This document shows positions 11,081 to 37,070 of a DNA stretch of 38,268 nucleotides, one piece after another (the first letter of the stretch is position 1; each line of letters opens with the position of its first letter). The stretch is taken from NCBI GenBank assembly GCA_020346825.1, contig CP070791.1, forward strand, positions 1,128,887 to 1,167,154. The letters are read 5' to 3'. A model generated the notes under the pieces. The model had not been told where the DNA came from and ran no database searches. It saw only the letters and a list, made by a program, of their open reading frames with translations. A program made the translations under genes and the position numbers. Source of the stretch: Candidatus Bathyarchaeota archaeon (GTDB lineage Archaea > Thermoproteota > Bathyarchaeia > Bathyarchaeales > Bathyarchaeaceae).

Positions 11081-12508
11081 CTAGTCCCGCCGGATTGCTT
11101 GACGCAGTGTCTCATTGAATTGTTTGAAGTTGACGATGTTGTTGAGGATGGCTGCAATTCTGAAGGGACTCTTTGAAGTTCGCAACATCTCTGTTAACAA
11201 CCGTCTAGGGCGAAGATAAAAAGCTTGGAAATACTTGTATACCAGCGAGCGCACTTCTTCGTAAGGAACTGGAGTGGACAAATCTTTGGGGATGCAAACT
11301 CCAGTTTCCCAATATCTTTCCTCGTCGATTAGTCCTTTTGCCACGAGATCGTTCCATATGTCGATTCCGGTGTGAGCCCCTAAAATGTTGACATCGGGCA
11401 CGTCAATATCCAATTTGTTTGCGAATTGCAACGTATTAATTATCTCGTTCCTAGTTTCGTCAGGGGCTCCGACAATGAAGGATCCTACAATTATGTCTAT
11501 ACCCGATTTTCTAGCCTTGCGGACAGCCCTTTCAGTCTGTCTTGGAGTAATTCCTTTGTTATAATAGTCTAAGATTCTTTGGTTTCCGCTCTCAATTCCA
11601 AAGAAGATGCATTTACATCCAGCCTTCACCATTTCCCTAAACAAATCATAGCTGACGTGGTCTACCCGGGAGTCGCAGAACCATTCAATATCTATTTTCT
11701 CCTTTCTCATTTCTTGACAGAACTTTGATACTCTCTTGGCGTTGAGAGTGAAGTTGTCGTCTGCGAAAAGAAATTGTTCATATCCTTCACTCTGCAAATA
11801 CTGCAATTCTTCAATAACGTTTTCAACTGATCTTGGTCTCCACATTCCTCGAGCAAATTTTCTGATTCCACAAAAGCTACAGTTAAAGGGGCACCCGCGT
11901 GACGAAATGAGGGTAGTGAATTTTTTGGTGTTCACCTTCACTCCAAAGATTGTTGAAGTATATTGAGTGCCTGTTAAATTGCGATCTGGAAATGGAAGAC
12001 TGTCTATTTCTCTACTCAATGTCCTGTCAGGAGTGGAAACTATTTTGCCGTCTTTCCTGAAGGTTATGCCTTCAACTTCCTTCAGGTCTCCTCTCTTTTC
12101 TAGACACTTTGCGAGTTCAAGGCTAGTGTGTTCTCCTTCACCTCTAGCAACTACGTCAACAGAAGGATATTTCTTGAGGATTCTTTCAGCATTGAAGGTT
12201 GCATGGTGACTTCCCAAAATGATCGTGATGTTGGGGTTTTCTGCTTTCACGCGTTCTGCAATTCTTGGTGCCTCCTTTGCAGCACTCAGTAATACTGAGA
12301 AGCCTAGAATGTCTGGATCTTCCTTTTTCACCCAACTCACGGCTTGGTTCAAAGAAAGGTTCCTTGCAGGTTGATCAAGTATGGAAACCACGATTCCCTC
12401 CTTCATCAAGACCCCTGCGCAGTATAAGATGCCCAAAGGAGGCCACGCCGTGGGAACCATGTGCATTGATTCTGAGGAAGGAGTGGGATTTATGAAGGAA
12501 AACTTCAT
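11081..12508 (-). CDS. B12-binding domain radical SAM protein
   Basis: The 475-aa product has an N-terminal cobalamin-binding-like domain (ILGFSVL..., IILGSHHAT) and the radical SAM cluster motif SSRGCPFNCSFCG. Confidence 0.9.
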   Translation of the reverse strand: MKFSFINPTPSSESMHMVPTAWPPLGILYCAGVLMKEGIVVSILDQPARNLSLNQAVSWVKKEDPDILGFSVLLSAAKEAPRIAERVKAENPNITIILGSHHATFNAERILKKYPSVDVVARGEGEHTSLELAKCLEKRGDLKEVEGITFRKDGKIVSTPDRTLSREIDSLPFPDRNLTGTQYTSTIFGVKVNTKKFTTLISSRGCPFNCSFCGIRKFARGMWRPRSVENVIEELQYLQSEGYEQFLFADDNFTLNAKRVSKFCQEMRKEKIDIEWFCDSRVDHVSYDLFREMVKAGCKCIFFGIESGNQRILDYYNKGITPRQTERAVRKARKSGIDIIVGSFIVGAPDETRNEIINTLQFANKLDIDVPDVNILGAHTGIDIWNDLVAKGLIDEERYWETGVCIPKDLSTPVPYEEVRSLVYKYFQAFYLRPRRLLTEMLRTSKSPFRIAAILNNIVNFKQFNETLRQAIRRD

Positions 12509-12632
12509 TTTGATCGCATTCAGCCTTTAGAACCCGAATAAAATAAACTTTGCCAAAAACCGGCAAGATGAAGTAGGTGTCTTCTCTTTGAGGAGAATAG
12601 TTATAGAATACCCAAGAGGCAAAAAGGGGTAG

Positions 12633-12733
12633 CGGGCCCGCGGGGATTTGAACCCCGGATCTCCGGCTCCGAAGGCTTGCGCGCCACTCTTTTGGATGGC
12701 TCAACGCCTTAATCCTGGCTAGGCTACGGGCCC
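12633..12733 (-). tRNA. tRNA-Arg(UCG) with a 25-nt intron at non-canonical position 29/30 (intron 12677-12701); no encoded CCA
   Basis: Hand-folded. The acceptor is GGGCCCG/CGGGCCC, the D arm is GCCT-AGCCAGGATTA-AGGC, and the T arm is CGGGG-TTCAAAT-CCCCG. Removing AGCCATCCAAAAGAGTGGCGCGCAA gives the anticodon arm UUGGC-CUUCGGA-GCCGG. A bulge-helix-bulge can be drawn around both junctions (see finding). Confidence 0.8.
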
Positions 12734-12942
12734 CGAAATAACTTGCTGAATAAACGATTAAAGGATTTGCTTCGGGACAAACAGTTACTTGTGCTCGACA
12801 GGTAATTGTTAAATCCTACGCGCGCAGCAGAGGAGTACCATTGATTAGACGCGCATTGTCTATTCCTGAGATATCAGAGAACGTTTGCCAGAAGAAACAC
12901 CATTAAGCTTTATTGTTGTGTGCGTGGAAAGGCAAAAGTAGT

Positions 12943-19157: not shown

Positions 19158-19721
19158 TCAGGTTAGATGTAGATGTATGGTGTCATTCAGTGATATCCAG
19201 TCTACGAGTGTGCTAACGCAACCATCGCGAAGTAGGGCGATGCCAAGGCCTATGACCCCTAGTTTTTCGCAGAGAAAGCTTCCAAGTACTAGTTCTTTAA
19301 AGCAAGCAACGCCAAGAGATGCTTTTGGTTTCATTTCGAGGAAGATTTTTTTTGCTATGCTACCGCCGGGGAGGATGAAGGTTCCTTTGTATCCTAGCGT
19401 TTTTGTCAATTGGATTATCTTTCGTATATTACATTTTCCACATTCTTGGCACTTGTAGCCGTGTTCTCCCAATTCTGCTGGACACTCTTTGGACCGTAGG
19501 CATTGTGGTAGAAGTAATATCCTCTCGGTGTATGGTGTAGATGCGAATTGTTCTTTAGATGCGTTATTTTTTGTCTTCACGTAAAGTTGAAAGAGTTCTT
19601 TTTCGTCTACGCCCATCTTGGCTGCGAATTGTTCCAATTTTTGAATAGCAATACCGCTGAATTTCGATTCTGAAAGTCTTTCTATCACACGCATGACGGA
19701 ACCACTTTCTCTTCCTTTCAT
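19158..19721 (-). CDS. DUF116 domain-containing protein
   Basis: ILLLPQCLRSKECPAE...GYKCQECGKCNI...LGYKGTFILPGGS...GVACFKEL is the Cys-rich DUF116/COG1852 pattern. Confidence 0.75.
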   Translation of the reverse strand: MKGRESGSVMRVIERLSESKFSGIAIQKLEQFAAKMGVDEKELFQLYVKTKNNASKEQFASTPYTERILLLPQCLRSKECPAELGEHGYKCQECGKCNIRKIIQLTKTLGYKGTFILPGGSIAKKIFLEMKPKASLGVACFKELVLGSFLCEKLGVIGLGIALLRDGCVSTLVDWISLNDTIHLHLT

Positions 19722-21674: not shown

Positions 21675-24600
21675 TTAAGCGACGAATTTTGTGAGGCTAA
21701 TTTGTTTAGGTTTGTTACCTTCGAACAAGGATCGTATTTCTTCTTCGACTAGGAAAAGTCGTTGAGTATAATAGTCGGAGAGACCATATTTTTGAACTAT
21801 TTGGTGTGCTGCTTCTAGATACTTTTCAATTCCTCCACGGTACACAGTTAGGACCACTGCGCCTCCACAACCAGGACACTTTCCGAGGAGCGGCGGGCGT
21901 CTAAACCGTCTGTTGCAAGATTTACATCTAAAGTTTTGGGTGGTGAAAGCTCTTAGGTTTCCCGCGATGTCACGGATAAAATGTGTCGTCAGAACTTTTT
22001 TCGCAACCATCTCCGCGTCGACAGCTTCAATCTTTTCCGCCAACTCAAGTTGACTATGCAACTTTTTAACCATCCGCCCCAGTCTCTTATACACACTCTC
22101 TTCATTACCAATATTGATGTCAGAAACGGGAATTGTATACTTGAACCCTTGAAACTGTGCTGCGGTGTTCAATCGATGTTCAATAAGGTCTATGAGTTCA
22201 CTCACTTTCTGCGGGGACTCTTTGTGCTCAGTTCTTTCATAGAAGGCGGATGGATATTTTGCTGCAACATCAACTTCATGAGCTTGTCGCTGCACTTCTA
22301 GTGGATTCACAACCGGAATTATGAACAACGGGGCATCCATTATTCCCCCTATCTGAGCAGGTAAATAGGCTTTAGAGAAGTTTAAGATCGCGTCCAAAGT
22401 GAGTATTAGAGAGTCCTCGTCACCATCACAGTCTCTACGCTTTGCTGAATGCCATAATGGATGAGCATAACAAACGTTCAAGCGAGTGAAGCCAATGATC
22501 CTCCCGAGGATGCCTACGGAGGTGTGTGGTGCCAAACCTACCACTAGATGCCCGATCAAGTCATCGGCGCGTTTAATGTTGTAATATGACGAAAGCCCAT
22601 ACGCTTTTTCTAGGAGTTCATCTAGGAAGTTGGCAACGCGAACGAAGTATTCTGCGCTCTTCAGCGGGATAATCACGTCTTGCACTTTAAGCTCACATAG
22701 CTGGTGGGCGCCAGACAATTTGTTTCCATTGCAATCGTAGCGGTAGCCAAGTTGCCGAAGATTTTCTACAGGCACACCAATTTCTGCAGCCATAAAATGC
22801 GTCAAAGGAGTGTTTGTAATATCGAACCGCATTGTTCCGTCCTTGAAAACAGACAAGTCGTGTTTCGCTCGCAGAATTCCCTTTTCAAGGATTTCAGGTG
22901 TTTTTGTTTCGTTCGTCAGACCCTTTACACCCTTCACTAGTTCGGGGATGGGAAGGTTCAGCTTCTTGCAGGCTTCATTCATCATCTCTTTAAGATCAAC
23001 TGATTGTTTGTTGTAGCTCCTTGTTGGAATCCTGCAAACGGGACAGAAAACGTCTTTTAGACGTCTTTTGCATTGGGGACAAAAATGTTCTACCAACGTG
23101 TCTGTTCCACATTTGAGACATTTCGTTCTGTAGGATGTTTCGTTACATTCTGAACAACGACGACTAGCGAGGTCAATATCGATTGTGGCACTGTTCAATG
23201 CTTCAGTAAGGTTTCGTCGAGAACCTCCTGCGAGCCCAATGGGGAAGAGGACGTGAACAAGTGGCCTCATCTCTCGCCTTTTCGCCTTTTCTGGGCGCCC
23301 CATTCTGGCGCCGATAAAGGTGGGAGCCTTTTTTCGCATAGGAATGCCTGTGAGGTTCTGAATGATTTCAAAGGCGTTTTTTGAGTGGACTATCTTTGTT
23401 TTAGTGGTGGGCGGTCCAAGACTATAAGCTAAAACATACGCCTCATCGTTTCTTATCCTAATTTTGTTTTCGCTGACTTCATGTGGAATACAAATCCTTT
23501 CAAGTATCTCTTTTACCGCCTCGTTATATACGCCAGTTATTTCTTGATCAATGTTGGCTTTCTTTTGCCTTTCGGAATTCAAAACCCATTTCCTTAACAT
23601 ATTAAATTCTTTACCCGAAACATTGCGCCAAAAAAAGGTGAAAGAAGGGTGAAGAGGTATCTTAAGCGCTAAAGATAATGCTATTGCCTCTTTGGCGCTC
23701 GGCTTGTTTTTGAAGGGATTCTTTAGGAAATCGTCAAGACGAGCTGTACAAATTTTGACGGTTGCCGCCGCCTTTTCTAGACTACCATGAAAAGCCTGTT
23801 TGATGAGCGATTGAAGCTCTTCACGCCACCATTCCTCAGTGTACCCGGAAGGAAGGAGAGGTTTATTATTATATAGAAAGTCGCCGAATCCGATGAGAAT
23901 GTCTCCAAGAAATAGAATTTTTTCAATTCGGTTTCTTATTTCTTTGAAGTTTTGAAGCGTGACACGAACAACGGATCCGTTTCTTAATCGTACAATCGGG
24001 GGTTCTATCGCGTCTACAGGAACAACAACCCCGGCTTTTCCGGGTCCTTCGATGCGAATCTGTGTTCCTGCGGCGAGAAAATTTTGGAGAACCATCATAG
24101 TCACCGGGTGTATGCCCACTGCTGCAAGGCCGGTATTCCTGGCTCTTCCATAGCGAAGCCTGAAGCCTCCTTGCCTTGACGGAAACGAAAAAATAGGACG
24201 GCCAGCTATGACGTCTTCCATAAAACCGGCCGTCTTCTTTTTCTCGATTTCTCTTATTTGCCTCAACCAACCCCATCCCTCGATTCCCAGTTTCTCGACG
24301 ATCGTCCAAACTTTTGCGGAGCGTCCTACAACTCCGTCATTTACAACTCGAAGAGCTCCGCCTCGAATTCTGTTTGTTTCAATTCGCGGAAGGTTGCGGA
24401 AGGATGAAACTTCAATTGGGTCGGACTCGGTGCCAGTGACTTCCACAGGAATAAATTGAATAGCTCTTTTCAATTCCTCGTCTGAAACATGATACTGGAA
24501 TCTTGCTACCGCCCGCTCGAATAGTCGTACTTCTTCTGTGAAACGTTTGATTTCCTCCTCGGTTGGCTTATAACGATCTAATCCGATCAGCCGGCGAACA

Positions 24601-25076
24601 AAATCTCCAATCACAAGGGTCAAGGCTTGTTCAGTGCCGCCTGCTGAACGTATTGGGCCAGCATAATAGATTGCCAGATATTTTGTTCGATCCGGGTTGG
24701 ATTTTATTGCTACTCGTGCCACACCTTGTAGTGGGGCCGCAGTGATTCCTTCAGTTAATATTGCGAGAGCGGTTCTTATGGCTTGCTCAGCTGCTTCACG
24801 TGCATCCATGTGCCCAAATTTTCCATAGACAATCTGCTCCGCAACTTTGAAAGCAAGCTCTTCTCGTGGTAGTTTCTTGCTTAAATCTCGTATGCTTTCG
24901 GCGACTCCGGAAGGACCTACAAGCCCCTCGACAAGCTTGGCTAAATCCTTCGCAACTTCAGGCTCAGGTCTAAGAGCCGGGTCTAGCCCGAGTGCTCTTG
25001 CTTTTCTTGCGACAGCATACAGGTTCTCTAGTTTCTTTTCTAAAATAGCCGTGTATTCTTGGTACTCTTTGCTCAT
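21675..25076 (-). CDS. polC: DNA polymerase D (Pol II) large subunit DP2
   Basis: The product is about 1133 aa. It has the N-terminal YAVARKARALGLDP, internal Cys4 clusters (CSECNETSYRTKCLKCG, CPQCKRRLKDVFCPVCR) and a C-terminal Zn module (FRCKSCNRRFRRPPLLGKCPGCGG). I prefer the ATG at 25076; the track uses a TTG at 25088. Nothing suggests an intein insertion. Confidence 0.95.
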   Translation of the reverse strand: MSKEYQEYTAILEKKLENLYAVARKARALGLDPALRPEPEVAKDLAKLVEGLVGPSGVAESIRDLSKKLPREELAFKVAEQIVYGKFGHMDAREAAEQAIRTALAILTEGITAAPLQGVARVAIKSNPDRTKYLAIYYAGPIRSAGGTEQALTLVIGDFVRRLIGLDRYKPTEEEIKRFTEEVRLFERAVARFQYHVSDEELKRAIQFIPVEVTGTESDPIEVSSFRNLPRIETNRIRGGALRVVNDGVVGRSAKVWTIVEKLGIEGWGWLRQIREIEKKKTAGFMEDVIAGRPIFSFPSRQGGFRLRYGRARNTGLAAVGIHPVTMMVLQNFLAAGTQIRIEGPGKAGVVVPVDAIEPPIVRLRNGSVVRVTLQNFKEIRNRIEKILFLGDILIGFGDFLYNNKPLLPSGYTEEWWREELQSLIKQAFHGSLEKAAATVKICTARLDDFLKNPFKNKPSAKEAIALSLALKIPLHPSFTFFWRNVSGKEFNMLRKWVLNSERQKKANIDQEITGVYNEAVKEILERICIPHEVSENKIRIRNDEAYVLAYSLGPPTTKTKIVHSKNAFEIIQNLTGIPMRKKAPTFIGARMGRPEKAKRREMRPLVHVLFPIGLAGGSRRNLTEALNSATIDIDLASRRCSECNETSYRTKCLKCGTDTLVEHFCPQCKRRLKDVFCPVCRIPTRSYNKQSVDLKEMMNEACKKLNLPIPELVKGVKGLTNETKTPEILEKGILRAKHDLSVFKDGTMRFDITNTPLTHFMAAEIGVPVENLRQLGYRYDCNGNKLSGAHQLCELKVQDVIIPLKSAEYFVRVANFLDELLEKAYGLSSYYNIKRADDLIGHLVVGLAPHTSVGILGRIIGFTRLNVCYAHPLWHSAKRRDCDGDEDSLILTLDAILNFSKAYLPAQIGGIMDAPLFIIPVVNPLEVQRQAHEVDVAAKYPSAFYERTEHKESPQKVSELIDLIEHRLNTAAQFQGFKYTIPVSDINIGNEESVYKRLGRMVKKLHSQLELAEKIEAVDAEMVAKKVLTTHFIRDIAGNLRAFTTQNFRCKSCNRRFRRPPLLGKCPGCGGAVVLTVYRGGIEKYLEAAHQIVQKYGLSDYYTQRLFLVEEEIRSLFEGNKPKQISLTKFVA

Positions 25077-25225
25077 CTCGCTGTCCAAAACCGGTCTCCT
25101 TCAATAGGATATTTGGCAGCGGATATTGAGTCTTTCTGACATAAAGCAGATAAAAAGCAAGGATGCGTTTTCGCGAGTTTAGAATGAAAGGAGAGTGGAT
25201 CCCGTTTCTGTGAGTGTTCCTTCAC

Positions 25226-25981
25226 TTATTCTACGTTTGGGTGTTTCGTGTTTTTTACCAATTCTCTGATTTTATCTGTCGCCGTGTACTCTTCTACAAT
25301 GGTGCCTGTAACAATGATGTCTGCCCCAGCGGTTGCTGCTTGTTTTACTTGTTCACCCGTTTTTATGCCTCCACCTACCACTAAACGCAGATTGGTAACG
25401 CGCTTTACACTTTGTATCATTTCGGGCGGTACTGGTTGTTTTGCGCCAGATCCCGCCTCCAAGTATACGAAACGCATTCCAAAATACTCTGCTACCAAGG
25501 CATGTGCAACAGTGAGTTCAGGTTTGTCATATGGAATAGGAATGGCCCGTCCAACGACGCTAGCTACGCGGCCTTCTCCCACGATTATATAACCTAATGG
25601 AATTGGCTCCAGATTAAATCTTTTGATGAGTGGTGCGCCCAGAACATGGGCTCCAATAATGAAGTAAGGATCTGTGGAATTTAGGAGCGACATGAACCAT
25701 ATGGCGTCGGCATATCTGCTAATACCCGTTACATTGTTGGGAAAAAGAATTACAGGAATCTCCACCGTCCTTTTTATAGCCTTTACAATCCGATCTAATC
25801 GTGAAGTGGATACAATCGTTGATCCGCCGACCATAATGGCCGCTGATTGACAGGACTCCGCTTCTTGAACTATGCGAGCTGCAGATTGAGGACTGGTCAT
25901 TTCAGGATCAACTAGAGTCATATGAAGGGTTCCTTCTTTCTGTATCTTTTCTAGAAGGTATTCTTCCACTTTACCAATCAT
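25226..25981 (-). CDS. geranylgeranylglyceryl phosphate synthase (GGGPS/PcrB family)
   Basis: Motifs are LHMTLVDPE, AIMVGGS, YLEAGSGA and VVGGGIKTGEQ. It starts at ATG 25981. Confidence 0.9.
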   Translation of the reverse strand: MIGKVEEYLLEKIQKEGTLHMTLVDPEMTSPQSAARIVQEAESCQSAAIMVGGSTIVSTSRLDRIVKAIKRTVEIPVILFPNNVTGISRYADAIWFMSLLNSTDPYFIIGAHVLGAPLIKRFNLEPIPLGYIIVGEGRVASVVGRAIPIPYDKPELTVAHALVAEYFGMRFVYLEAGSGAKQPVPPEMIQSVKRVTNLRLVVGGGIKTGEQVKQAATAGADIIVTGTIVEEYTATDKIRELVKNTKHPNVE

Positions 25982-25992
25982 ACAGAGTCCCA

Positions 25993-26235
25993 CTAGACGT
26001 TAGTTGCGCCCGAATAGAATTTGTCTGTGAATTGACAGTATATGTCGATCTCTTGGAAGGCGGGGCGGACAGACAGTTCATCCGTTAAGCCGCAACTTCC
26101 ACATCGCACCCTTGCGTTGTCTTCACCTGGCCGCAGCTCAACCCTGATAGCTTCTTTACCACATTTAGGGCACAGGTAAACCTTGGGCAACTTCGCTTTA
26201 GGGATCCGAACAACCTTTCTTCGTCTTCTACCCAT
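25993..26235 (-). CDS. elf1: Elf1-like transcription elongation factor (zinc ribbon)
   Basis: The 80-aa product reads [29 protein letters not shown]...VRCGSCGL...[14 protein letters not shown] basic N-terminus, a C4 ribbon and the (D/E)(V/I)Y..(W/F)(I/T)D tail match eukaryotic and TACK Elf1. Confidence 0.8.
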
Positions 26236-26403
26236 ATCAAAGTCCCCAGTACTAGTGTAAAACCTTAAGCTACTACTAAATTACCCGTGTCCAAATACAG
26301 CTTAATGGCTTAAATATTTGTCTTAGAAGCCGGACTTTACGAGATTAAAATGAATGGAAAAACACGACTTATTAAAAAGGAGACGCGATAGTAGAAATGC
26401 AAG

Positions 26404-27255
26404 GTGTACACATTGAAGATAACGCCTAGCGTTCTGAAATTGGATTTGCCACTGGTTGAAAATAGAATTGAGGGGTTCATTAAAGATTACGTAGAAAAAT
26501 GTGGGACCGAGGGAGTGGTCTTAGGTGCATCCGGTGGACTTGACAGCTCAACAACGCTGGCTCTCGCCTCTCTTTCTTTAGGAGGCGACAGAGTGCTGGG
26601 CATTGCGATGCCCGAGCAGGAAACACACAACGCCACAGATATTCAACACGCAAAACTTCTTGCAGAAGAATTTGGCTTCAATATCCAAGTCGTTGACATC
26701 TCGTCAACGCTAAAAACGTTCTTCCACACGCTCCCAATTTACGATGCCACAAACAAACTTAGTAAAGGTAACGTAAAGGCGAGAATTAGAATGGTTTATC
26801 TCTACTATTATGCCAACAAACTTAACAGACTGGTGTGTGGCACCTCCGACAAATCTGAAACCATGATGGGTTACTTCACAAAGTGGGGAGACGGGGCTGC
26901 CGACATTTCACCCATCATGGATCTTTACAAGACCCAAGTTATGCAACTAGCTTCACATGTAGGTGTTCCAACCGGAATTGTGACGAAGCCGCCCTCTCCT
27001 AGGCTTTGGCCGAACCAGCTAGCGGAAAAAGAGTTAGGTATCAAGTATGAGATTCTAGATTTGATTCTGTTCGGCTTGGAACATTTTATGAAGCCTCAGG
27101 AAATCTCCGGGCAACTAAATCTGCCTATGGCCTTGGTTGAAGCCGTTAAGAGCCGGTGGCTAGCCTCAGAACACAAAAGGCAACCACCCTTAACAACAAA
27201 ACTTGGATTCAGAACCGTTGGAAAAGACTTTAGAGTTCCCCGGGGACTACACTAA
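26404..27255 (+). CDS. nadE: NAD+ synthetase, single-domain (PP-loop ATP pyrophosphatase)
   Basis: Motifs are GASGGLDSS, GTSDKSETMMGYFTKWGDG and SPRLWPNQ. It starts with GTG. Confidence 0.92.
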   Translation: MYTLKITPSVLKLDLPLVENRIEGFIKDYVEKCGTEGVVLGASGGLDSSTTLALASLSLGGDRVLGIAMPEQETHNATDIQHAKLLAEEFGFNIQVVDISSTLKTFFHTLPIYDATNKLSKGNVKARIRMVYLYYYANKLNRLVCGTSDKSETMMGYFTKWGDGAADISPIMDLYKTQVMQLASHVGVPTGIVTKPPSPRLWPNQLAEKELGIKYEILDLILFGLEHFMKPQEISGQLNLPMALVEAVKSRWLASEHKRQPPLTTKLGFRTVGKDFRVPRGLH

Positions 27256-27299
27256 ATCTAACAAAACTCCCCACAATTATGGGTTTGTAGAGGAACTGT

Positions 27300-28133
27300 G
27301 TGTTGAATAAAGTTAATGTAGCTCTTGCGCAAATGATGTGCAAAGTTGGAAGCAAAAAAAGCAATCTAGATATAATGAAAAGGAATATTGAACAAGCAAA
27401 GAAAAGGAACGCAAATCTCGTTATTTTTCCAGAGCTCTCATTAACAGGCTACTCGAATCGAGATCTTACATACGAGTTGGCTGAGTCCGTTCCAGGCCCT
27501 TCCACTCGTTTTCTAGAGGAGATAGCAAAGAAAGAGGAGCTATACGTAGTGTTTGGAATGCCGGAACATAGCGAAAAAGCACGCGCAGTTCTATTCAATA
27601 CCGCGGTTTTGTTGGGTCCTAACGGATTGATCGGCAAGTACCGAAAGATGCACTTGCCAACTCACAGCGTTTTCGAAGAAAAACGCTATTTTCGACTAGG
27701 ATATAAGGCACCAATTTTCGAAACAGAAATCGGAAAAATTGGTTTAACGATTTGTTATGATCTGTTTTTCCCGGAAATGTCCCGTTTGCTGAGAATGCAA
27801 GGTTCACAACTCATAATCTGTATATCCGCCTCGCCAGGCGTGAGGAGCAGGTTCTTTGAGGTATTCACCGTCGCGAGGGCCATTGAAAACACCGTTTTTC
27901 TAATCTATGTGAACCTTGTTGGAGTTGAAAACGGGCTACAATTTTGGGGAGGAAGCAGAATAATAGACCCCCGTGGAAACCTCCTCACTAAGGCCAAGTA
28001 TGATGAAGAAGATTTAGTAGTAGGTCACATTGACTACTCAGATTTAGAACATACAGAAACCTTTGTACCCACGCTTCGCGACTTAAGACCCGAACTATTC
28101 GCCTCCTTACGTGATCACGCAGAAACCCTTTGA
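27300..28133 (+). CDS. carbon-nitrogen hydrolase (nitrilase superfamily), candidate glutaminase partner of NadE
   Basis: VALAQM...LVIFPELSLTGY supplies the catalytic Glu, YRKMHLP the Lys and GLTICYDLFFPE the Cys. It lies 44 nt downstream of nadE on the same strand. Confidence 0.88.
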   Translation: MLNKVNVALAQMMCKVGSKKSNLDIMKRNIEQAKKRNANLVIFPELSLTGYSNRDLTYELAESVPGPSTRFLEEIAKKEELYVVFGMPEHSEKARAVLFNTAVLLGPNGLIGKYRKMHLPTHSVFEEKRYFRLGYKAPIFETEIGKIGLTICYDLFFPEMSRLLRMQGSQLIICISASPGVRSRFFEVFTVARAIENTVFLIYVNLVGVENGLQFWGGSRIIDPRGNLLTKAKYDEEDLVVGHIDYSDLEHTETFVPTLRDLRPELFASLRDHAETL

Positions 28134-28208
28134 GACATACCTGCCCGCGTAGATAGACCTCAAGATCTGCCTGATAAAGAGCTCCTACCTAAGGCCTGTC
28201 ACGGTTTT

Positions 28209-28265
28209 GGTGCTTGTGATAATCACACGTGATCTTCTTGTGATCAAAGAGATCACAAAAGCACC
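28209..28265. promoter_or_regulatory. compound palindromic operator-like element (TGTGAT/ATCACA half-sites nested in the GGTGCTT/AAGCACC inverted repeat)
   Basis: The sequence is GGTGCTTGTGATAATCACACGTGATCTTCTTGTGATCAAAGAGATCACAAAAGCACC. TGTGAT-A-ATCACA is at 28215-28227, GTGATC at 28229-28234, and TGTGATC-N5-GATCACA at 28239-28257. A TATA-like GATAAAGA lies about 35 nt upstream. Confidence 0.6.
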
Positions 28266-28631
28266 CCTTTGGAAGTTGTTCTCGCGAAAGGCTGTTACGC
28301 CCGGAACATCGCAATATCAATTGAACCCACGAAAAAAAAAGGGGCGTGTTATGTCGCTATATTCTCCTGGCTGGAAACTAAAACTTTGCGTTTTTTGTGA
28401 CTGTTGGTTCCAAACAGTGAATGCAACCGAAATAAACTGTATGAGCAGAAAAGAAACAAAGAACCAAGAGAAGGCAATCCACAATCTCGCGTAAGATGTT
28501 TGAAAACAGCGTGTTTAGGTGCTCAAAGCTTCAATTATATAAGAAGTTCCCAGGTATTTACGCATTCTCATACATTGTGGCCCAGGCACCCGCGCAAGAA
28601 CCCATTAATGACGAAACCATAAATCTTTAGT

Positions 28632-29159
28632 ATGCGCGTATACAAAAGCGTATCCCTCAGACACTCCTCCGGGGGAAAAAGGTTGCGCTCAAAAGAAAGG
28701 GCCCAAAAGTGGATAAAAAGCTTACTAGAAGATCCAATTGCGAAGGTGCTGGCAAAAAACAGCACTCTAACCAAAACACAGCTAGAAACGCTTCTAATCG
28801 ACTATCTAGCCGAAAGTCTGTCTGGAAAAGAACTAAAATACGACGAGAAGGCTAGATTAAGGATTTCGGCCGTGAGTCGTGGCGCTTTCAACAGAACTCT
28901 GCGGCAAGCCAGATGGAATGTCATCCAATCCCTCTACACGATCTTCCTTCTAGGATATTTGGGGGTTTTTGAGGACACGCGATTGGATCATTATCTAGAG
29001 GTTTCAAACAAACTAAAAACCTACATGAAGGCCCGCAGAAACCTCGTAACAAAAGAGGGGACAAACCAACACTTGAAAATCATAAGCGCATTACATGAAG
29101 AACTTAAAACAAGCCTAGAACACTTATCTAAACCAAGAACCAGGTCAAGCAAACTGTGA
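28632..29159 (+). CDS. orphan small DNA-binding protein (sigma-70 region 4 / Tfx-like HTH, tentative)
   Basis: The 175-aa ORF starts with ATG and has a basic N-terminus. LSGKELKYDEKARLRISAVSRGAFNRTLRQARWNVIQSL resembles an r4/LuxR/Tfx-type HTH. This is pattern recollection, not a search. Its stop codon lies inside the palindrome TGTGATATCACA. Confidence 0.6.
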   Translation: MRVYKSVSLRHSSGGKRLRSKERAQKWIKSLLEDPIAKVLAKNSTLTKTQLETLLIDYLAESLSGKELKYDEKARLRISAVSRGAFNRTLRQARWNVIQSLYTIFLLGYLGVFEDTRLDHYLEVSNKLKTYMKARRNLVTKEGTNQHLKIISALHEELKTSLEHLSKPRTRSSKL

Positions 29160-29173
29160 TATCACACATCACA
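29155..29173. promoter_or_regulatory. perfect 12-bp palindrome TGTGATATCACA plus a third ATCACA half-site
   Basis: The sequence is TGTGATATCACACATCACA. It overlaps the TGA stop (29157-29159) of the preceding CDS. Confidence 0.55.
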
Positions 29174-29412
29174 GTGTTGTTACAACAGAAGATTTGCAGG
29201 CGCATAAAAACCAACGATCCCAGAGACAGAGAAACTCAATTTTATGGAGTCGCGTTCGGCGGTTTTTGAGGTTATATTTGGCGTCCTTTTTAAAAATAAA
29301 GCGTCTTTCGCGTTACTTCGGTTCGAAAGAGTTACCAAGTATAGGTGCAACAGTGGAAAGGAACTATGTCAAGGCGTGCCTTCTTCAAGGAGGGAGTTTT
29401 TCAAGGAATGGG

Positions 29413-29550
29413 TGTGATATGTGATGTCACGGCTACAAAGGTCTTCGTGCTCCCCAATTTAACATAAAACTTAAGTTTATGCATATAATAATGTGATGTG
29501 TGATCAGGCTATGGAGATCACATGGTATCACATACGAATCACAAGTGATC
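29413..29550. promoter_or_regulatory. array of eight TGTGAT(C)/(G)ATCACA-type sites around a TATA-like box, upstream of the 29618 gene
   Basis: TGTGAT is at 29413 and 29420. TGTGAT is at 29492 and TGTGATC at 29499. GATCACA is at 29516, and ATCACA at 29527 and 29538. GTGATC is at 29545. The TATA-like GCATATAATAA is at 29481-29491. An SD-like GGGAGAGGTG lies at 29600-29609, before the ATG at 29618. Confidence 0.6.
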
Positions 29551-29617
29551 CTACGCCTTTTTTTCCACTTCACAAAGCATCTCCAATTCATCCTAAAAGA
29601 GGGAGAGGTGCGGCCTT

Positions 29618-30328
29618 ATGTATCCAGACCTTCTTTTGATTGTCGTATCCGCTCTGTTGCTCATCACGATTGGAGTGTCTGCCCTCTATTACGCGCGAAT
29701 AAAGGAGGTTCGAGAGGAATATGACACGGCAAAGAACACAGTGCGTGATGTTGTCTCGAGCTTCAACAGGCAATTTCAGAGACAAGAGGACAAACTCCAT
29801 GCCGTTACTCATAAGATAGAGGCCCTCTCTTTATATAACGAAAAAGGCGTGATGACGGTAGAAACAGTTGGTGAACAATTAGCGACTCTTGCAGACAGAA
29901 TTGAAGATGCCAAAAAAATCGAAAGAAAAGTGTCTACACAAATTCAAGATATGAACAAGAAGATTGATGATGTAAAAAGGGACCAAAACAAGGCAACCCA
30001 AAGAATCAATGAAGTTGAAAAAGTGAAATATCGATCACTCGTGTCCGAAGCAAAAATAGAAGCGGCTATCCCAATCAAAAAGGAAAAGGCCTTGGCTCCT
30101 TTAACGGAAACCGAACTGATGGCGCTTGAAATCGTCGCTGGAGAGGGTGAGAAGACGGCGCCAGAAATCAGAGAAAGAATAGGACTGACAAGGGAACATA
30201 CTGCGCGCCTAATGAAAAAGCTCTATGAAGCTGGTTATTTGGAAAGGGACACTCATAAGATGCCATATACCTACCGCCTAAAGGAAGAAATGCGGAAAAT
30301 CCTAAAGAAGAGGGAAGCCAAGACCTAG
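29618..30328 (+). CDS. membrane-anchored coiled-coil protein with C-terminal MarR/TrmB-like winged helix
   Basis: The 236-aa product has one N-terminal TM helix (LLLIVVSALLLITIGVSALYYA) and a charged heptad-like region of about 150 aa. The C-terminal wHTH is LTETELMALEIVAGEGEKTAPEIRERIGLTREHTARLMKKLYEAGYLERD. Confidence 0.7.
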   Translation: MYPDLLLIVVSALLLITIGVSALYYARIKEVREEYDTAKNTVRDVVSSFNRQFQRQEDKLHAVTHKIEALSLYNEKGVMTVETVGEQLATLADRIEDAKKIERKVSTQIQDMNKKIDDVKRDQNKATQRINEVEKVKYRSLVSEAKIEAAIPIKKEKALAPLTETELMALEIVAGEGEKTAPEIRERIGLTREHTARLMKKLYEAGYLERDTHKMPYTYRLKEEMRKILKKREAKT

Positions 30329-30438
30329 CCCTCGGCTTTAGCAACCAAAGAAGTTCCTGCCGCTTCCTTTCATCCCAAAAAATATCAAAAGAGCAGGTGC
30401 TTTGGAGCTGAAGGGGCATTACCGGTTGGGGTTTCCTT

Positions 30439-30879
30439 CTATCTATTACCTTTCACAAAACTTGATCCTTTGGATATGTTGGTAAGAATCCGGAACCGTC
30501 GGCGATTAGAGCCTCTGTTTTTGGCGAGGAGTCCGCGATTAGTCATTCTAGACAAATATGTCGAAACAGTACTCAGGCTAACGGGTTCTCTAAACTCTTC
30601 TTCATACGCAAATTGAATATCCTTAGAAGAAAACCACCCAATTGGGAACCGTCTTTCAACTACCAAACGAAGTTTATCAATTTTGGATAACTCCGATGGA
30701 GATGTATTCCACCCGATATTTGCGGTGGGCGCTCCTCCTAGTAGTTCAACTAGATCCAGTAGTTGAAGAGCCTTTTCCCTTGTCACTCTACCTTCAAAAG
30801 TTATGGTATACCGCTCTCCTATGCCAGTATAGATTTCTACACGTATTTTTCTAGCAGGCATCTCACTCATCCACAACAT
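30439..30879 (-). CDS. orphan winged-helix protein (N-terminal beta-rich domain + C-terminal wHTH)
   Basis: The ORF is about 146 aa and the C-terminal half has PVSLSTVSTYLSRMTNRGLLAKNRGSNRRRFRIL. Candidate starts are ATG 30879, 30870 and 30861. It is transcribed away from oriC. Confidence 0.6.
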   Translation of the reverse strand: MLWMSEMPARKIRVEIYTGIGERYTITFEGRVTREKALQLLDLVELLGGAPTANIGWNTSPSELSKIDKLRLVVERRFPIGWFSSKDIQFAYEEEFREPVSLSTVSTYLSRMTNRGLLAKNRGSNRRRFRILTNISKGSSFVKGNR

Positions 30880-30892
30880 CAAGAGTTTTTAC

Positions 30893-30912
30893 AAGTTAAC
30901 ACTTCACAAGTT
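30893..30912 (+). repeat. copy A of a 18-20-bp direct repeat, AAGTTAAC(AC)TTCACAAGTT
   Basis: AAGTTAACACTTCACAAGTT matches 31155-31172 (AAGTTAACTTCACAAGTT) apart from a 2-nt indel. Confidence 0.7.
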
Positions 30913-31062
30913 ATAGGACTTACGGTGAAGAAGTTATGGAAGAAGAACCCGAGAAATAGCCTTAAAATAGAAACTAACGTAAATTTGCATTTTATTAGGT
31001 TTACAAACTTCACACCCGCTTGTTTTTCTAAAACGAAGAATAAAGGTTCCGTGAACTCCGTT

Positions 31063-31085
31063 TTCCAGTAGAAATCCAGGGGTCG
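31063..31085 (+). promoter_or_regulatory. origin recognition box ORB-1
   Basis: TTCCAGTAGAAATCCAGGGGTCG shares the TCCA-N3-GAAAT-N2-AGGGGT core with the two other boxes. Confidence 0.75.
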
Positions 31086-31154
31086 TCTCTTTACACAAAA
31101 CGATACAAAATAGAGTTAATTTTCAGGTGAAGAAAGAAAAAAGGAGATATCCAA

Positions 31155-31172
31155 AAGTTAACTTCACAAGTT
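31155..31172 (+). repeat. copy B of the direct repeat AAGTTAACTTCACAAGTT
   Basis: See copy A. It contains the 10-bp palindrome AAGTTAACTT. Confidence 0.7.
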
Positions 31173-31286
31173 TTCACGATTAGTCAACTGTTTGTATAAC
31201 AAAATTCAGATTGCAAGGTGAGTATTCAACATAATACTGTGTGTCTTCATGACTCTTTTTATGTTTCTTTGACGAGAACAACACTT

Positions 31287-31309
31287 CCACCCCTCTATTT
31301 CCTTTGGAC
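31287..31309 (-). promoter_or_regulatory. origin recognition box ORB-2 (inverted)
   Basis: The reverse complement reads GTCCAAAGGAAATAGAGGGGTGG. Confidence 0.75.
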
Positions 31310-31469
31310 TTGCTAACTGGACACTAAATCTTTGACTGATTTTTTGCCAAAAAAACATATGATATACTCTAAAATATTTTATAATAAATATTAAGTATAA
31401 AGAAATTTTATAACCAGCGGAGTCTTATTCTTTCAGAATTTACTTTACACTTCTTTTTACGAGACTTAT

Positions 31470-31492
31470 TTCCAGCGGAAATTTAGGGGTGT
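31470..31492 (+). promoter_or_regulatory. origin recognition box ORB-3
   Basis: The sequence is TTCCAGCGGAAATTTAGGGGTGT. A degenerate partial copy (ACCAGCGGAGTC) lies at about 31414-31425. Confidence 0.75.
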
Positions 31493-31668
31493 GAGAGTGA
31501 AAAGGCGTGGGTTCTTTGTCAACATTCTTCTTCAATTCGTTTTTCTAGTAAATTACGGGTTGACTTTAGGTTTCTTTGTGATTTGTCTAATTTTTTCTAT
31601 GATAGTTCTTATCTATTGGAGTTGAAACGGAGGTATTACCTCTGCAACTCCCTGCAGGTGACCATTAC

Positions 31669-32919
31669 ATGGATGAACCTAGCATGATTGACACTGTTTT
31701 TGAACGATTTCTAAAAGGTACTCATATTTTTAGGAACAGAGACGTGCTACGCCACGATTATGTTCCCCATAAGCTTCCACATCGTGAAAAACAGATTCAT
31801 TGTCTGGGCGAAATAGTAGCTCCTGTTCTGAAGGGTTCTCGATGTTCCAATGTCTTTATCTACGGCAAAACGGGTACAGGAAAAACGGCAGCTACGAAAT
31901 ATGTGCTGAGTAAACTTTCTCAAAAATCAGGTGAATTGAGAGCACCTATTGAGGTTTGTTATGTAAACTGTCACTTGGCTGGCACAGAATATAGGGTCCT
32001 CTCAAGTTTATGTAATGCTTTAGGTGTGAGAGTTCCCTTTACGGGTTTGGCTGTAGGAGAGGTCTTTGATAGATTCAAAAAAGGATTAGATTTACGAAAA
32101 AATATTTTTATTGTTGTTCTTGATGAAATCGATGCACTAATAAAAGCGCGAGGAGACGTGTTACTTTACGAACTAACCAGAGTAAACGAAACTCTTCGTC
32201 ATGGTAGAACATCAATAGTAGGAATATCAAACGACCTTCGATTCAAAGAGTTTCTGGATCCTAGAGTTTTGAGTTCTCTTAGCGAAGAGGAAATAGTTTT
32301 CAGTCCGTATGATGCTGCTGAACTTCAGGATATCCTGTGGGAGCGTTCTCAACTAGCCTTTCTTGAGGGAGTACTTCTTGATAGCGCAGTTGGTCTGTGC
32401 GCTGCCTTGGCTGCTGCGGAACATGGAGACGCTAGAAGAGCTTTAGATCTACTTCGCGTTGCAGGTGAGGTGGCAGAGCGAGAAGGAGCCCCGTGTGTTA
32501 CTGAAGAGCACGTGCGTCAGGCTGAGAAGAGGGTTGAACACAATCGAATTATCGAAGTTTTGGTGAACCTTCCGCTACACTCAAAGTTGGTCCTATCCAG
32601 CGTTTACTTGTTGGGCAAGGCCAAGGTTAGTTGCGCCATCACTGGCGACATTTATGAGATTTATTGCGAGCTCTGTGATCAGTTTAGCCTTTCTCCGTTG
32701 ACTCAGAGGAGGGTTAGCGGGTTGATCAACGAATTGGATATGGTGGGGTTGCTGAACGCGCGGGTTGTGAGCATGGGGAGATATGGTCGCACGAAAAAGA
32801 TTCGCTTGGGTATTAACCGCGGTCTAGTTAGAAACGTATTCACTACTGATGATAGACTTGGGCGGTTGATTAATTATGTTCCCAAGTGTTTGGAGGGAGT
32901 TTCGGCTAGTAAGCGTTGA
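31669..32919 (+). CDS. cdc6: Orc1/Cdc6 replication initiator
   Basis: Walker A is IYGKTGTGKTA and Walker B is VVLDEIDAL. Sensor motifs and the DARRALDLLR arginine finger region are present, followed by a C-terminal winged helix. Confidence 0.95.
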   Translation: MDEPSMIDTVFERFLKGTHIFRNRDVLRHDYVPHKLPHREKQIHCLGEIVAPVLKGSRCSNVFIYGKTGTGKTAATKYVLSKLSQKSGELRAPIEVCYVNCHLAGTEYRVLSSLCNALGVRVPFTGLAVGEVFDRFKKGLDLRKNIFIVVLDEIDALIKARGDVLLYELTRVNETLRHGRTSIVGISNDLRFKEFLDPRVLSSLSEEEIVFSPYDAAELQDILWERSQLAFLEGVLLDSAVGLCAALAAAEHGDARRALDLLRVAGEVAEREGAPCVTEEHVRQAEKRVEHNRIIEVLVNLPLHSKLVLSSVYLLGKAKVSCAITGDIYEIYCELCDQFSLSPLTQRRVSGLINELDMVGLLNARVVSMGRYGRTKKIRLGINRGLVRNVFTTDDRLGRLINYVPKCLEGVSASKR

Positions 32920-33122
32920 AGACAGAGGGGATTTAAGTAAATATAACTTGGTAGTGTCCACAACCGTCTTTTTGTGTGCGCGGGGCCTGCGCAGGATTGA
33001 ATTTGGTGAACCCCCCTTGTTTTCGAAAGATTTGAGAAACCCGCAATTGTCCTTGCGAGAGACGCGCATTTGCTGTTGGATTCCTGAACCTATGCGGGTA
33101 GCTAAGGGCATCACGCAAGCAC

Positions 33123-34688
33123 TCACCCATACACCTCTGTAAAATTAATTGTTGAGACGTGCAGTGTTTGGAGATTTACAATTGGCACAATTCCCGGGGT
33201 AGGTATAACTCCCATTCTCTTTTGATAGTCTGTCTGCCCCTGCCAGGCACCAGAGTTGACCAAAAGAGTTCCCCGGTATGTGTCACATTTCAACACATGC
33301 ACATGTCCAGCATGAAAGATGTCTGGCACTCTTTCTATGACTATGAAGTCTTTGGTTTCCGGGGCGATGGGTGTTCTTTCACCATAAATTGGTGCAAGGT
33401 GTCTACTCTGCAACAAAAGCTTCATGGATTTGTTGGGGGTCTGAACGCTTACGTTTGGGGCAACAGCGGCGACATCGTCTAAGCTTCGTCCATGATACAA
33501 AAGTAGTTCAACTTCGTGTAGGCTAATTGTGCAAGGATTTCCGAGAGAATACATCTTTCGCGCTTCATATAGCGGTTCTGCGTAGTCTCGCGGTATTGCT
33601 GGTTGCGGCAACGCCTTTCTGGAAGCGTCATGGTTGCCCGGTATAATTACTACTTCGATATAATCTGGAATTTGTGCGATGAGTTTCGCCACTTCTCGAT
33701 ATTGTTCATAAATATCTTGTATCACCAGTTCTTCCATCTGCCCCGGATAAACACCTATCCCGTCCACGAGATCCCCGGCAATAACTACATATTTAACGTG
33801 GCTGGCCAAGTTTCTTGCGTGTTTGTTTCCAAAGTTTCCGTTCAGCCATGACACAAAGCGGTTGAATTCGTTCTCCATGAACATTTGGCTCCCTGTATGC
33901 AAATCTGATATGAGGGCTGCGTAGACGGGAAGTGACGCTTTATGCGGGGTTTTCTGAGGAACATCTGGCCAGATGAAATCTTTTGCGATAAATAGCTTGT
34001 TCCTTCCTTTTATGGCGCTTACGCAAATAACCTGATCCAATAAGAGAGTTTGGGCTTTTTCCATAGCCTCTTTGCCTATGTTATGGGGAACAAGAACAGT
34101 AACACTGGCTTCCAAATCCTCGAATTTCAAGAAGAGCCGCTTTTTAGACTCCCTCTTTTCCGTGACCATACCGATTATTTTAACTTTTGAATTAACTGGC
34201 GCCTTAAGGGCTTCCGAGATGGGCATGGCACTTTTTGTGTCGATCCTCCGCCTTAGAATTTTCTTTATCTTTTTGAAGCGATCTTGAAAGTACTGTAAAT
34301 ATTCCTCAGCGGATCCTGTCGTGCAGACTTTATCCGTTGGATCATCAAGCACTTTTATGTTGGCATCCGTATCTTTTGCATATGGACGAAAGGATTTCCT
34401 CGTTTCAAGGATGGGTCTCGGAGAACCAGACGAAGCGGGCTTCCCCTTCTGGAAAACGTCTTTAGCCATTTCTTCCAGAAGTTTGCGATCTACGAATAAC
34501 GGGTTTTCAGGCAATCCCGCAAGTTTTTCAATAGTTCTTTCCATCAAACTAAGGGGGTCTTCCTTTTTAGAAAGCGTGGTCAGAAAGTCGAAGGCCTCCT
34601 TGTCTAACTGGTAGCCCGCGGCGATCGTGAAGGAAACCGCTCTTTGGAGCTTCTCACCTTCACTCATAGCGGTCGCCTTCTCCAGCAT
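33123..34688 (-). CDS. polB: DNA polymerase D small subunit DP1 (Mre11-like phosphoesterase exonuclease)
   Basis: The 521-aa product has an OB-fold region (KIIGMVTEKRESKK) and calcineurin-like motifs: ISDLHTGS, VIAGDLVDG, IIPGNHDA and FHAGHVH. Confidence 0.93.
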   Translation of the reverse strand: MLEKATAMSEGEKLQRAVSFTIAAGYQLDKEAFDFLTTLSKKEDPLSLMERTIEKLAGLPENPLFVDRKLLEEMAKDVFQKGKPASSGSPRPILETRKSFRPYAKDTDANIKVLDDPTDKVCTTGSAEEYLQYFQDRFKKIKKILRRRIDTKSAMPISEALKAPVNSKVKIIGMVTEKRESKKRLFLKFEDLEASVTVLVPHNIGKEAMEKAQTLLLDQVICVSAIKGRNKLFIAKDFIWPDVPQKTPHKASLPVYAALISDLHTGSQMFMENEFNRFVSWLNGNFGNKHARNLASHVKYVVIAGDLVDGIGVYPGQMEELVIQDIYEQYREVAKLIAQIPDYIEVVIIPGNHDASRKALPQPAIPRDYAEPLYEARKMYSLGNPCTISLHEVELLLYHGRSLDDVAAVAPNVSVQTPNKSMKLLLQSRHLAPIYGERTPIAPETKDFIVIERVPDIFHAGHVHVLKCDTYRGTLLVNSGAWQGQTDYQKRMGVIPTPGIVPIVNLQTLHVSTINFTEVYG

Positions 34689-36958: not shown

Positions 36959-37070
36959 GCCGGGGTGACAGAGCGGTAATGTGCCGGCCTCGAGATGCAC
37001 GAATGTGGGGTCCAGAAGACAGCCGGTGGCGCTTTGCGCCTCAAGGGTTCAAGTCCCTTCCCCGGCGCCA
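36959..37070 (+). tRNA. tRNA-Ser(CGA), class II, with a 26-nt intron at or near the canonical 37/38 site (36995-37020); CCA encoded
   Basis: Hand-folded. The acceptor is GCCGGGG/CCCCGGC and the discriminator is G. The anticodon arm is CCGGC-CUCGAG[intron]A-GCCGG. The long variable arm is GGCGC-TTT-GCGCC and the T arm is AAGGG-TTCAAGT-CCCTT. Confidence 0.85.

Follow-up and report, generated by a model that had tools for sequence, protein, structure and literature searches.

The winged helices of the TrmB family, to which the archaeal regulators TrmBL1 and Tgr belong, read a GTGAT half-site as part of the Thermococcales glycolytic motif (TGM), TATCAC-N5-GTGATA, and a site between the TATA region and the start codon is the classical archaeal repressor position (PMC4158304). 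Archaeal transcription factors may also be membrane-bound, as seen for ArnR and ArnR1 of Sulfolobus acidocaldarius, which are helix-turn-helix (HTH) proteins with a permanent membrane anchor (PMC6396743). A bacterial bridge between origin-proximal sites and the membrane has been described for Staphylococcus aureus, where RicO is reported to join the two through a sequence-specific DNA-binding domain and a membrane element (bioRxiv 10.64898/2026.03.06.710092). Here we compare these systems with a locus from Candidatus Bathyarchaeota archaeon, contained in a 38,268-nucleotide stretch of contig CP070791.1 (assembly GCA_020346825.1, positions 1,128,887 to 1,167,154, forward strand) that we refer to as the window. 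The locus consists of three genes for proteins of 158, 236 and 140 amino acids (aa), here called P158, P236 and P140, together with arrays of the hexamer TGTGAT/ATCACA, and adjoins a putative replication origin (oriC).

The order P158-P236-(nurA/herA)-P140-oriC-orc1-polD(DP1) is a near-invariant arrangement in 123 distinct Bathyarchaeia loci, and we regard the conserved, membrane-anchored DNA binder beside the origin as real at the level of sequence. Our preferred, though tentative, reading is that the locus forms a Bathyarchaeia-wide autoregulated module, in which P236 binds the arrays and keeps DNA near the origin attached to the membrane. All three open reading frames (ORFs) lie where the preliminary description of this DNA had placed them. 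The elements of the module, numbered from the first nucleotide of the window, are as follows.

28215-28257: cluster A, TGTGAT-A-ATCACA, GTGATC and TGTGATC-N5-GATCACA; about 430 nt upstream of the 158-aa gene, an invariant block in relatives
28625-28655, plus strand: promoter/operator-like element CTTTAGTAT-N4-GTATACAAAAGCGTATCC, invariant alignment columns just upstream of the true P158 start
28683-29159, plus strand: P158, basic all-helical protein of 158 aa, start corrected from a 175-aa reading
29155-29173: cluster B, perfect palindrome TGTGATATCACA and one more ATCACA; overlaps the P158 stop codon, invariant
29413-29430: cluster C, TGTGAT-A-TGTGAT-GTCAC
29461-29477, plus strand: conserved AACATAAAACTTAAGTT block between clusters C and D, invariant columns in the alignment of relatives
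29492-29550: cluster D, a TGTGAT pair spaced by 7 nt, then three ATCACA spaced by 10-11 nt, then GTGATC
29618-30328, plus strand: P236, single-pass membrane protein of 236 aa
30439-30861, minus strand: P140, winged-helix protein of 140 aa, start corrected from a 146-aa reading

P236 carries one transmembrane (TM) helix at aa 5-23 (Kyte-Doolittle 19-residue mean 2.82) and no second hydrophobic segment. Basic residues follow the helix, and the C-terminus is predicted to be cytoplasmic. Heptad periodicity extends over aa 22-70 and 78-135, about 110 aa in total, with a heptad contrast of 0.605 compared to 0.280 +/- 0.047 in shuffled sequences (z = 6.9), and a PDB profile search with the P236 family matched coiled-coil proteins only, and weakly. 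An invariant linker (aa 144-167) is followed by a winged helix at aa 162-214, which scores over the Pfam gathering thresholds (in brackets) for HTH_27 at 29.7 (22.2), MarR at 26.0 (24.6) and MarR_2 at 27.2 (27). The preliminary description had proposed one N-terminal TM helix, a coiled coil of about 150 aa and a C-terminal MarR/TrmB-type winged helix; the first and last of these stand, while the predicted coiled coil is shorter, at about 110 aa.

The same architecture is found throughout the family, which at E <= 1e-10 falls into 279 clusters when grouped at 50% identity; the majority are full-length proteins of 215-250 aa. A survey of 118 full-length representatives at 50% identity showed that an N-terminal segment of TM grade is kept in 105, with a median outside tail of 3 residues, and that none has a second TM segment. 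Lysine and arginine are richer after this segment than before it in 102 of the 105, as expected from the positive-inside rule. The recognition-helix signature REH[TS][AS]R[LIM]M, present in 94 of the 118, is invariant at 29% overall identity.

Judged by its HTH core, P236 is a MarR-superfamily winged helix. It is not a canonical MarR or TrmB protein, because the dimerisation and effector domains are absent and the domain order is different. A canonical MarR regulator (six helices, ~140 aa) was rejected on the grounds that the MarR dimerisation helices are missing and the rest of P236 is taken up by the N-terminal membrane anchor, the long heptad region and the linker; the family profile also found no MarR match in the PDB. 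TrmB membership was likewise rejected: TrmB PF01978 reached 23.5 bits, under its cut-off of 25.6, no C-terminal sugar-binding (effector) domain of the TrmB type was found, and the winged helix is itself C-terminal.

The HTH of ArnR is N-terminal and its TM helices are C-terminal, and the protein controls archaellum genes. P236 resembles it as an HTH protein permanently anchored in the membrane, but has the reverse order (TM helix first, winged helix last), a predicted coiled coil and linkage to the origin. General searches turned up no sequence relationship between the two, and no comparison aimed at ArnR was made.

The three proteins had been called orphans in the preliminary description. This proved incorrect, as database searches returned 3014 homologues for the P158 family, 2426 for P236 and 2917 for P140. 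Two scans of one-genome-per-species collections, one of them seeded with the most divergent members, gave 158 loci, of which 123 are distinct. These cover Bathyarchaeia, including Hecatellales and Bathycorpusculum, and the module also occurs in the Ca. Bathyarchaeum tardum M17C enrichment (L024; PMC10477458). The closest relative of the window (JAOUPL010000002) shares 72-88% amino-acid identity across the region. Neither scan found family members outside Bathyarchaeia; the few module-bearing loci labelled Thermoproteota, Nitrososphaerota or, in one case, bacterium carry the archaeal module and are evidently mislabelled bins. Conservation and gene order were established directly from these loci, counting in each case the loci with enough contig.

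158-aa gene within 2.5 kb upstream of P236: 115/115 loci
orc1 within 6 kb downstream of P236: 98/99 loci
140-aa gene near P236: 93/99 loci, down to 29% identity
polD DP1 kept: 51/52 loci
nadE kept: 80/103 loci (78%)
CN-hydrolase kept: 78/103 loci (76%)

The preliminary description had called for a comparison of synteny with orc1/oriC in related archaea, and the linkage it looked for is clearly present in the first three of these counts. Linkage also outlasts the inversion of the 158-aa gene together with the insertion of an XRE-CBS gene (L081/L082), and it holds whether or not a 2.6-kb nurA-herA pair separates P236 from P140.

Some of the loci are unusual in their own right. L089 (CP070820.1, 398246-414935) is the only one of 99 without orc1 and P140 within 6 kb, and may reflect a rearrangement or an assembly issue. 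In the deep-branching L081 (7275-7910) and L082, the 158-aa gene is inverted and an XRE-HTH and CBS-domain gene lies directly upstream of P236, with which it is probably co-transcribed; TGTGAY palindromes stand at the start of this gene. Bin HHBFW-2_201803_bins_186 (JAWBOE01) holds three scaffolds (L077, L097 and L157), each with P158, P236, P140 and orc1 at differing identities, L097 and L157 also having polD DP1; a mixed bin is more likely here than three origins. L049/L138 (DATKLC010000071.1), filed as 'Candidatus Krumholzibacteriaceae bacterium', has the whole Bathyarchaeia module, and the shorter L127 (JAITCR010000101.1), filed as 'Nitrososphaerota archaeon', has nadE, CN-hydrolase, P158 and P236 before the contig breaks off. 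Both are likely mis-binned or mislabelled.

Gene order of this kind could also accompany an ordinary local circuit, in which the pair of winged-helix proteins, perhaps with P158, would auto- and cross-regulate their own genes and, where present, nurA-herA, with the adjacency to oriC being incidental. The anchor of P236 would then be a means of signal sensing or of sequestration, as it is in one-component regulators of the membrane-bound type, for which ArnR provides an archaeal precedent (PMC6396743). We consider this nearly as likely as the combined tethering and autoregulation reading. It is consistent with the synteny of neighbouring genes such as polD DP1 and nadE, but the trio is linked to orc1 more tightly (98-100%) than the metabolic neighbours are (76-78%), and this linkage persists class-wide, down to 29% identity, through the inversions and insertions in L081/L082 and at the nurA-herA position. 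Furthermore, P236 has almost no extracellular part, so sensing of the outside in the manner of ToxR or CadC would be impossible.

The TGTGAT/ATCACA arrays stand on both sides of the 158-aa gene and ahead of the 236-aa gene, with cluster D lying 68-126 nt upstream of the P236 start codon. The window has 25 copies of the hexamer, 14 of which are concentrated in intergenic sequence totalling 1 kb (binomial P = 3e-16). In relatives, the spacer between P158 and P236 reaches a density of 16.9/kb and the region ahead of P158 one of 3.9/kb, compared to 0.50/kb elsewhere. The existence of the arrays and their specificity to the module are direct observations: with a cluster defined as at least 4 sites per 120 nt, 2.6 Mb contained 205 clusters, of which 204 are part of the module, and when a composite array pattern was scanned against 185,579 species genomes, all 25 Bathyarchaeia hits among the matches listed lay within it. 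TGTGAY is the top repeated hexamer even in the most divergent lineages, L081/L082 included. Cluster blocks are invariant in the alignments of relatives, and the DNA between them is unconserved.

The single cluster outside the module adjoins a relocated accessory ORF of 110 aa. This ORF has no Pfam match and lies between CN-hydrolase and cluster A in 16/80 loci (for example L001:7800-8132); the window lacks it and keeps cluster A. In L015 the ORF (19405-19719) has moved 9 kb and a TGTGAT cluster (19267-19370) has moved along with it. We also considered a small gene or conserved RNA in the spacers at 28258-28620 and 29176-29412, and rejected this on the basis of an empty Rfam search and of no blastn or peptide conservation against 80 loci.

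The distances preferred between adjacent sites in the arrays are 7, 10-11, 21 and 30 nt, which puts the sites in phase with the DNA helix. Helical phasing is typical of cooperative nucleoprotein arrays, and short helix-phased repeats flank the promoter both in plasmid parC-ParR of R1 and in iteron arrays. By analogy with these, the arrays here could be an autoregulatory operator and at the same time an assembly site for a higher-order nucleoprotein complex. The module differs from parC-ParR and iterons in containing neither a partition nucleoside triphosphatase (NTPase) nor an initiator gene, and its arrays are chromosomal, class-wide and off viral contigs. Their positions in promoters and flanks, outside oriC, are those that a local circuit would require, and there are three conserved elements for three proteins (TGTGAY arrays, GTATACAAAA before P158 and ACTTCACAAGT before P140). 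On the other hand, 6-14 helically phased sites over 1.3 kb far exceed the need of a simple operator.

To account for these features, we propose that P236 is inserted through an N-terminal signal-anchor helix, leaving ~4 residues outside, and that a two-segment cytoplasmic coiled coil of ~110 aa would oligomerise the protein and present its C-terminal winged helices, which would bind the TGTGAY arrays. We infer that P236 is the array binder because its HTH is of the MarR/TrmB type and the TGM of TrmBL1 and Tgr shares the GTGAT half-site with the hexamer found here (PMC4158304). Binding may repress or tune transcription of P158 and P236, since the arrays are flanked by a TATA-like block on one side and by the start codon on the other; repressing TGM sites are likewise downstream of such a block. 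The conserved AACATAAAACTTAAGTT block is a candidate TFB recognition element (BRE)/TATA element for the 236-aa gene. In contrast to the N5 palindrome of the TGM, sites in the arrays are mostly direct repeats 7 or 10-11 nt apart, and binding by P236 is putative. As every bound P236 would be membrane-anchored, the array DNA would be held at the cytoplasmic membrane, in this window 1.3-1.6 kb from the elements resembling origin recognition boxes (ORBs). P158 may act as a basic helical partner, and P140 as a soluble regulator of the winged-helix type bordering oriC, with its own ACTTCACAAGT promoter element and, in about half of the relatives, at the head of a nurA-herA operon.

Among bacterial origin-to-membrane or origin-to-pole tethers, RicO is the closest functional analogue of such a tether, with the reservation that the DNA binding and localisation of P236 are both predicted. 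RicO is bacterial and non-homologous, and its DNA-binding domain is N-terminal and its membrane element is a C-terminal amphipathic helix, not an integral TM helix (bioRxiv 10.64898/2026.03.06.710092).

Which of the three proteins binds the arrays is a question on which the relatives give some guidance. The arrays persist in loci without P140 (L031, L110 and L120), making either P236 or P158 the likely binder. Co-variation between motif and recognition helix was uninformative, as neither the motif nor any of the three helices varies within the class.

P158 was first read as a 175-aa protein. That ORF exists and its product is basic, with an isoelectric point of 10.0, but the start codon was placed wrongly. 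Stop codons interrupt the first 9-19 codons of the 175-aa reading in 26 relatives, where the DNA nevertheless stays conserved, and the gene caller's database product is 158 aa, which together place the real start at TTG 28683. A Shine-Dalgarno-like GGGGG run precedes this codon. The apparent N-terminal residues VYKSVS of the longer reading correspond to a conserved DNA element, GTATACAAAAGCGTATCC / GTATACAAAA, and not to protein; GTATACAAAA itself (28638-28647) is found in 64/79 loci.

The sigma-r4/Tfx-like HTH proposed for this protein in the preliminary description could not be confirmed. No HTH family appeared among the Pfam matches of 36 family members at E <= 10, Pfam, NCBIfam and PDB profile searches gave no match, and AlphaFold2 produced an all-helical model of seven helices at low confidence (predicted local distance difference test score, pLDDT, 54.5), for which Foldseek gave no match with E < 1. 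P158 has no detectable relatives outside its own family. Conserved in it are the invariant motif VSRGAFNRTLRQAR, the hydrophobic helix WNVIQSLYTIFLLGYLGVF that comes next, and an invariant helix, SRGAFNRTLRQAR.

It is nevertheless conceivable, though improbable, that P158 binds the arrays by means of a new helical fold and that P236 is a membrane partner or antagonist limiting free P158, its winged helix binding elsewhere, for example in oriC or the P140 promoter. Arrays stand at both ends of the P158 gene; in L081, where the gene is inverted, cluster B has stayed at its 3' end. The protein is strongly basic, carries the invariant SRGAFNRTLRQAR helix and co-occurs with P236 in 115/115 loci. 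L081/L082, which have the fewest exact TGTGAT copies, also have the most substitutions in that helix, yet TGTGAY is still their top repeated hexamer. Against P158 as the binder, the searches and models described above revealed no HTH or other DNA-binding fold, and the documented preference for a GTGAT half-site belongs to the winged helix of the TrmB/MarR type (PMC4158304).

P140 had been described as a 146-aa protein with a C-terminal winged helix. The conserved start (ATG 30861, MPARK...) gives 140 aa, and the winged helix is well supported by modelling. AlphaFold2 gave a pLDDT of 69.9 overall and of 82-90 over aa 60-125, with a beta-beta-alpha domain at aa 3-40, a variable disordered linker and a winged helix at aa 60-125 (H-S-H-H-S-S), for which the top Foldseek matches were AntR (ArsR family), RosR, MecI and Fur. 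Penicillinase_R matched the family weakly (35/35 members, best E = 5e-5), with the window protein scoring 16.6 bits compared to a cut-off of 22.6. Cdc6_C gave sub-threshold matches only (31/35 members, 16 bits compared to 25.1), and an origin of P140 from the winged helix of the neighbouring Orc1 was rejected, hhalign against an alignment of Bathyarchaeia Orc1 winged helices returning a probability of 0.1%. Comparison of P158, P236 and P140 with each other found no relationship.

According to the model, P140 combines an ArsR/BlaI-like winged helix of generic type with an N-terminal domain that is new. It has the canonical winged helix of ArsR, BlaI/MecI and Fur-type repressors in common with them, but lacks a metal site and the C-terminal dimerisation region of BlaI, and has a conserved N-terminal beta-beta-alpha domain of its own. 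Compared to BlaI/MecI/CopY the domain order also differs, as the extra domain of P140 is N-terminal, and all matches are under the family thresholds. A copy of ACTTCACAAGT lies 17-46 nt upstream of P140, and the window has a second inside oriC.

Genes for a NurA-like protein (328 aa) and a HerA-like protein (519 aa, DUF87) follow P140 on its strand in 49/99 distinct loci, the closest relatives among them, which suggests an origin-adjacent P140-nurA-herA operon. In L001 the pair occupies 10250-12782 (minus strand). A tblastn search of the 38-kb window found no trace of the pair. Such an arrangement allows for the trio to be primarily regulators of this DNA end-resection or DNA-pumping operon, which would have been lost in the lineage of the window. 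This seems very unlikely: the pair is directly downstream of P140 where it occurs, but the half of the lineages without it within reach keep the trio and arrays under strong conservation, and P236 lies between the arrays and the operon. Explanations outside the four readings given here are equally remote.

On its 5' side the trio is preceded in the window by polD DP2, geranylgeranylglyceryl phosphate (GGGP) synthase, an Elf1-like zinc ribbon, nadE and CN-hydrolase, and on its 3' side it is followed by a 786-bp AT-rich spacer, orc1/cdc6 and polD DP1.

21675-25088, minus strand: polD large subunit DP2
25226-25993: GGGP synthase
25993-26235: Elf1-like zinc-ribbon gene
26404-27255, plus strand: nadE
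27300-28133, plus strand: CN-hydrolase
30883-31668: putative oriC, intergenic, upstream of orc1, GC ~0.36
30901 and 31161: ACTTCACAAGT palindromes in the putative oriC spacer
31063-31082: ORB-like TTCCAGTAGAAATCCAGGGG (ORB-like word TTCCAGTAGAAA)
~31340-31410: AT-rich stretch within the putative oriC
31470-31481: ORB-like TTCCAGCGGAAA
31669-32919, plus strand: orc1/cdc6 initiator gene (Pfam Cdc6_lid, Cdc6_C, AAA)
33123-34688, minus strand: DNA polymerase D small subunit (DP1), convergent with orc1 (Pfam DNA_pol_E_B, Metallophos)

The spacer at 30883-31668 has the properties of an archaeal oriC, being AT-rich, containing ORB-like repeats and adjoining orc1/cdc6, and on sequence grounds we accept it as such. 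The words TTCCAGTAGAAA and TTCCAGCGGAAA stand either side of a very AT-rich stretch, and each is 1 mismatch from the ORB core, which we take from the archaeal origin literature to be TTCCAGTGGAAA. The equivalent spacer in the loci of 71 relatives is 673-868 bp long with a mean GC of 0.34, and has the same ORB-like words in the same geometry. GC skew in the window was uninformative on the origin. The position of the trio beside oriC, as put forward in the preliminary description, is borne out by the ORB-like words, the AT-rich spacer and orc1/cdc6 at 31669.

Three further observations concern this region. With polD DP2, orc1 and polD DP1 within 13 kb around oriC, positions 21675-34688 form a replication island. 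One TGTGAT copy, at 31577-31582, precedes the orc1 start codon by ~90 nt; a lone copy is a number that chance can account for, and relatives show no enrichment in their oriC spacers. Further along, a 109-nt Rfam tRNA match (36959-37067, plus strand, 46 bits) has no ARAGORN call and is probably an intron-containing archaeal tRNA.

Several points weigh against the idea that P236 holds the origin region at the membrane. The Pfam match in P236 covers profile positions 1-52 of 59 only, and is thus limited to the ~50-aa HTH core, and the predicted coiled coil comes solely from heptad statistics and weak coiled-coil profile matches. The putative recognition helices of all three proteins are equally invariant. 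Array density inside oriC is 0.46/kb, which is background level, and we rejected the arrays as ORB-type origin elements on this basis. They lie at ordinary operator positions, so that autoregulation alone explains them. Moreover, the block is syntenic through polD DP1 in 51/52 loci, and so the gene order that links it to oriC may be inherited instead of selected. The 2.6-kb nurA-herA pair in half of the relatives puts the arrays ~4 kb from oriC. Finally, no ParA/SegA-like motor came up in the conserved block or in those window ORFs that were compared with Pfam.

For this last reason a Par/Seg partition locus, which would need a ParA/SegA-type NTPase, was rejected. The only nearby ATPase in relatives is HerA-like. 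One may still envisage that P236 and the TGTGAY arrays make up a ParA-less, centromere-like origin-membrane system, universal in Bathyarchaeia, which positions or segregates the new origin region. P158 and P140 would then regulate the system, and a HerA-type DNA pump would be coupled to it in many lineages. We regard this more ambitious proposal as doubtful. The preliminary description had left a choice between tethering, segregation or gating of initiation at the origin and a simple local circuit. Its origin-linked membrane DNA binder is upheld as a prediction, and the location of the arrays at the promoters and flanks of the 158- and 236-aa genes, with background density in oriC, favours a local circuit at least as much as tethering.

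A defence system or mobile element was also considered and rejected, PADLOC giving only weak generic coiled-coil and winged-helix matches for the trio and generic HerA matches for the ATPase of the relatives. A scan of 2.9 million viral contigs found no relative of the module. No confident match to a characterised regulator, which might have pointed to an unrelated regulon, was found for any of the three proteins, and the literature we searched contained no paper linking Bathyarchaeia with Cdc6/oriC or describing P158, P236 or P140.

Few archaea on Earth are more abundant than Bathyarchaeia. To our knowledge, almost nothing is known of their cell biology, and archaeal chromosome positioning and segregation are largely unknown beyond a few Sulfolobus and haloarchaeal systems. 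Even if the module were a regulatory circuit only, it comprises three new class-wide protein families, one of them without detectable fold relatives, and a new domain architecture of TM helix, coiled coil and winged helix, and TGTGAY would be usable as an oriC marker in metagenome-assembled Bathyarchaeia genomes. With an oriC-adjacent, class-wide, integral-membrane predicted DNA binder and an exclusive phased array, the module offers a testable entry to origin-region biology in this class, and its class-wide presence at the origin suggests that it regulates or positions the origin region in a manner not described so far.

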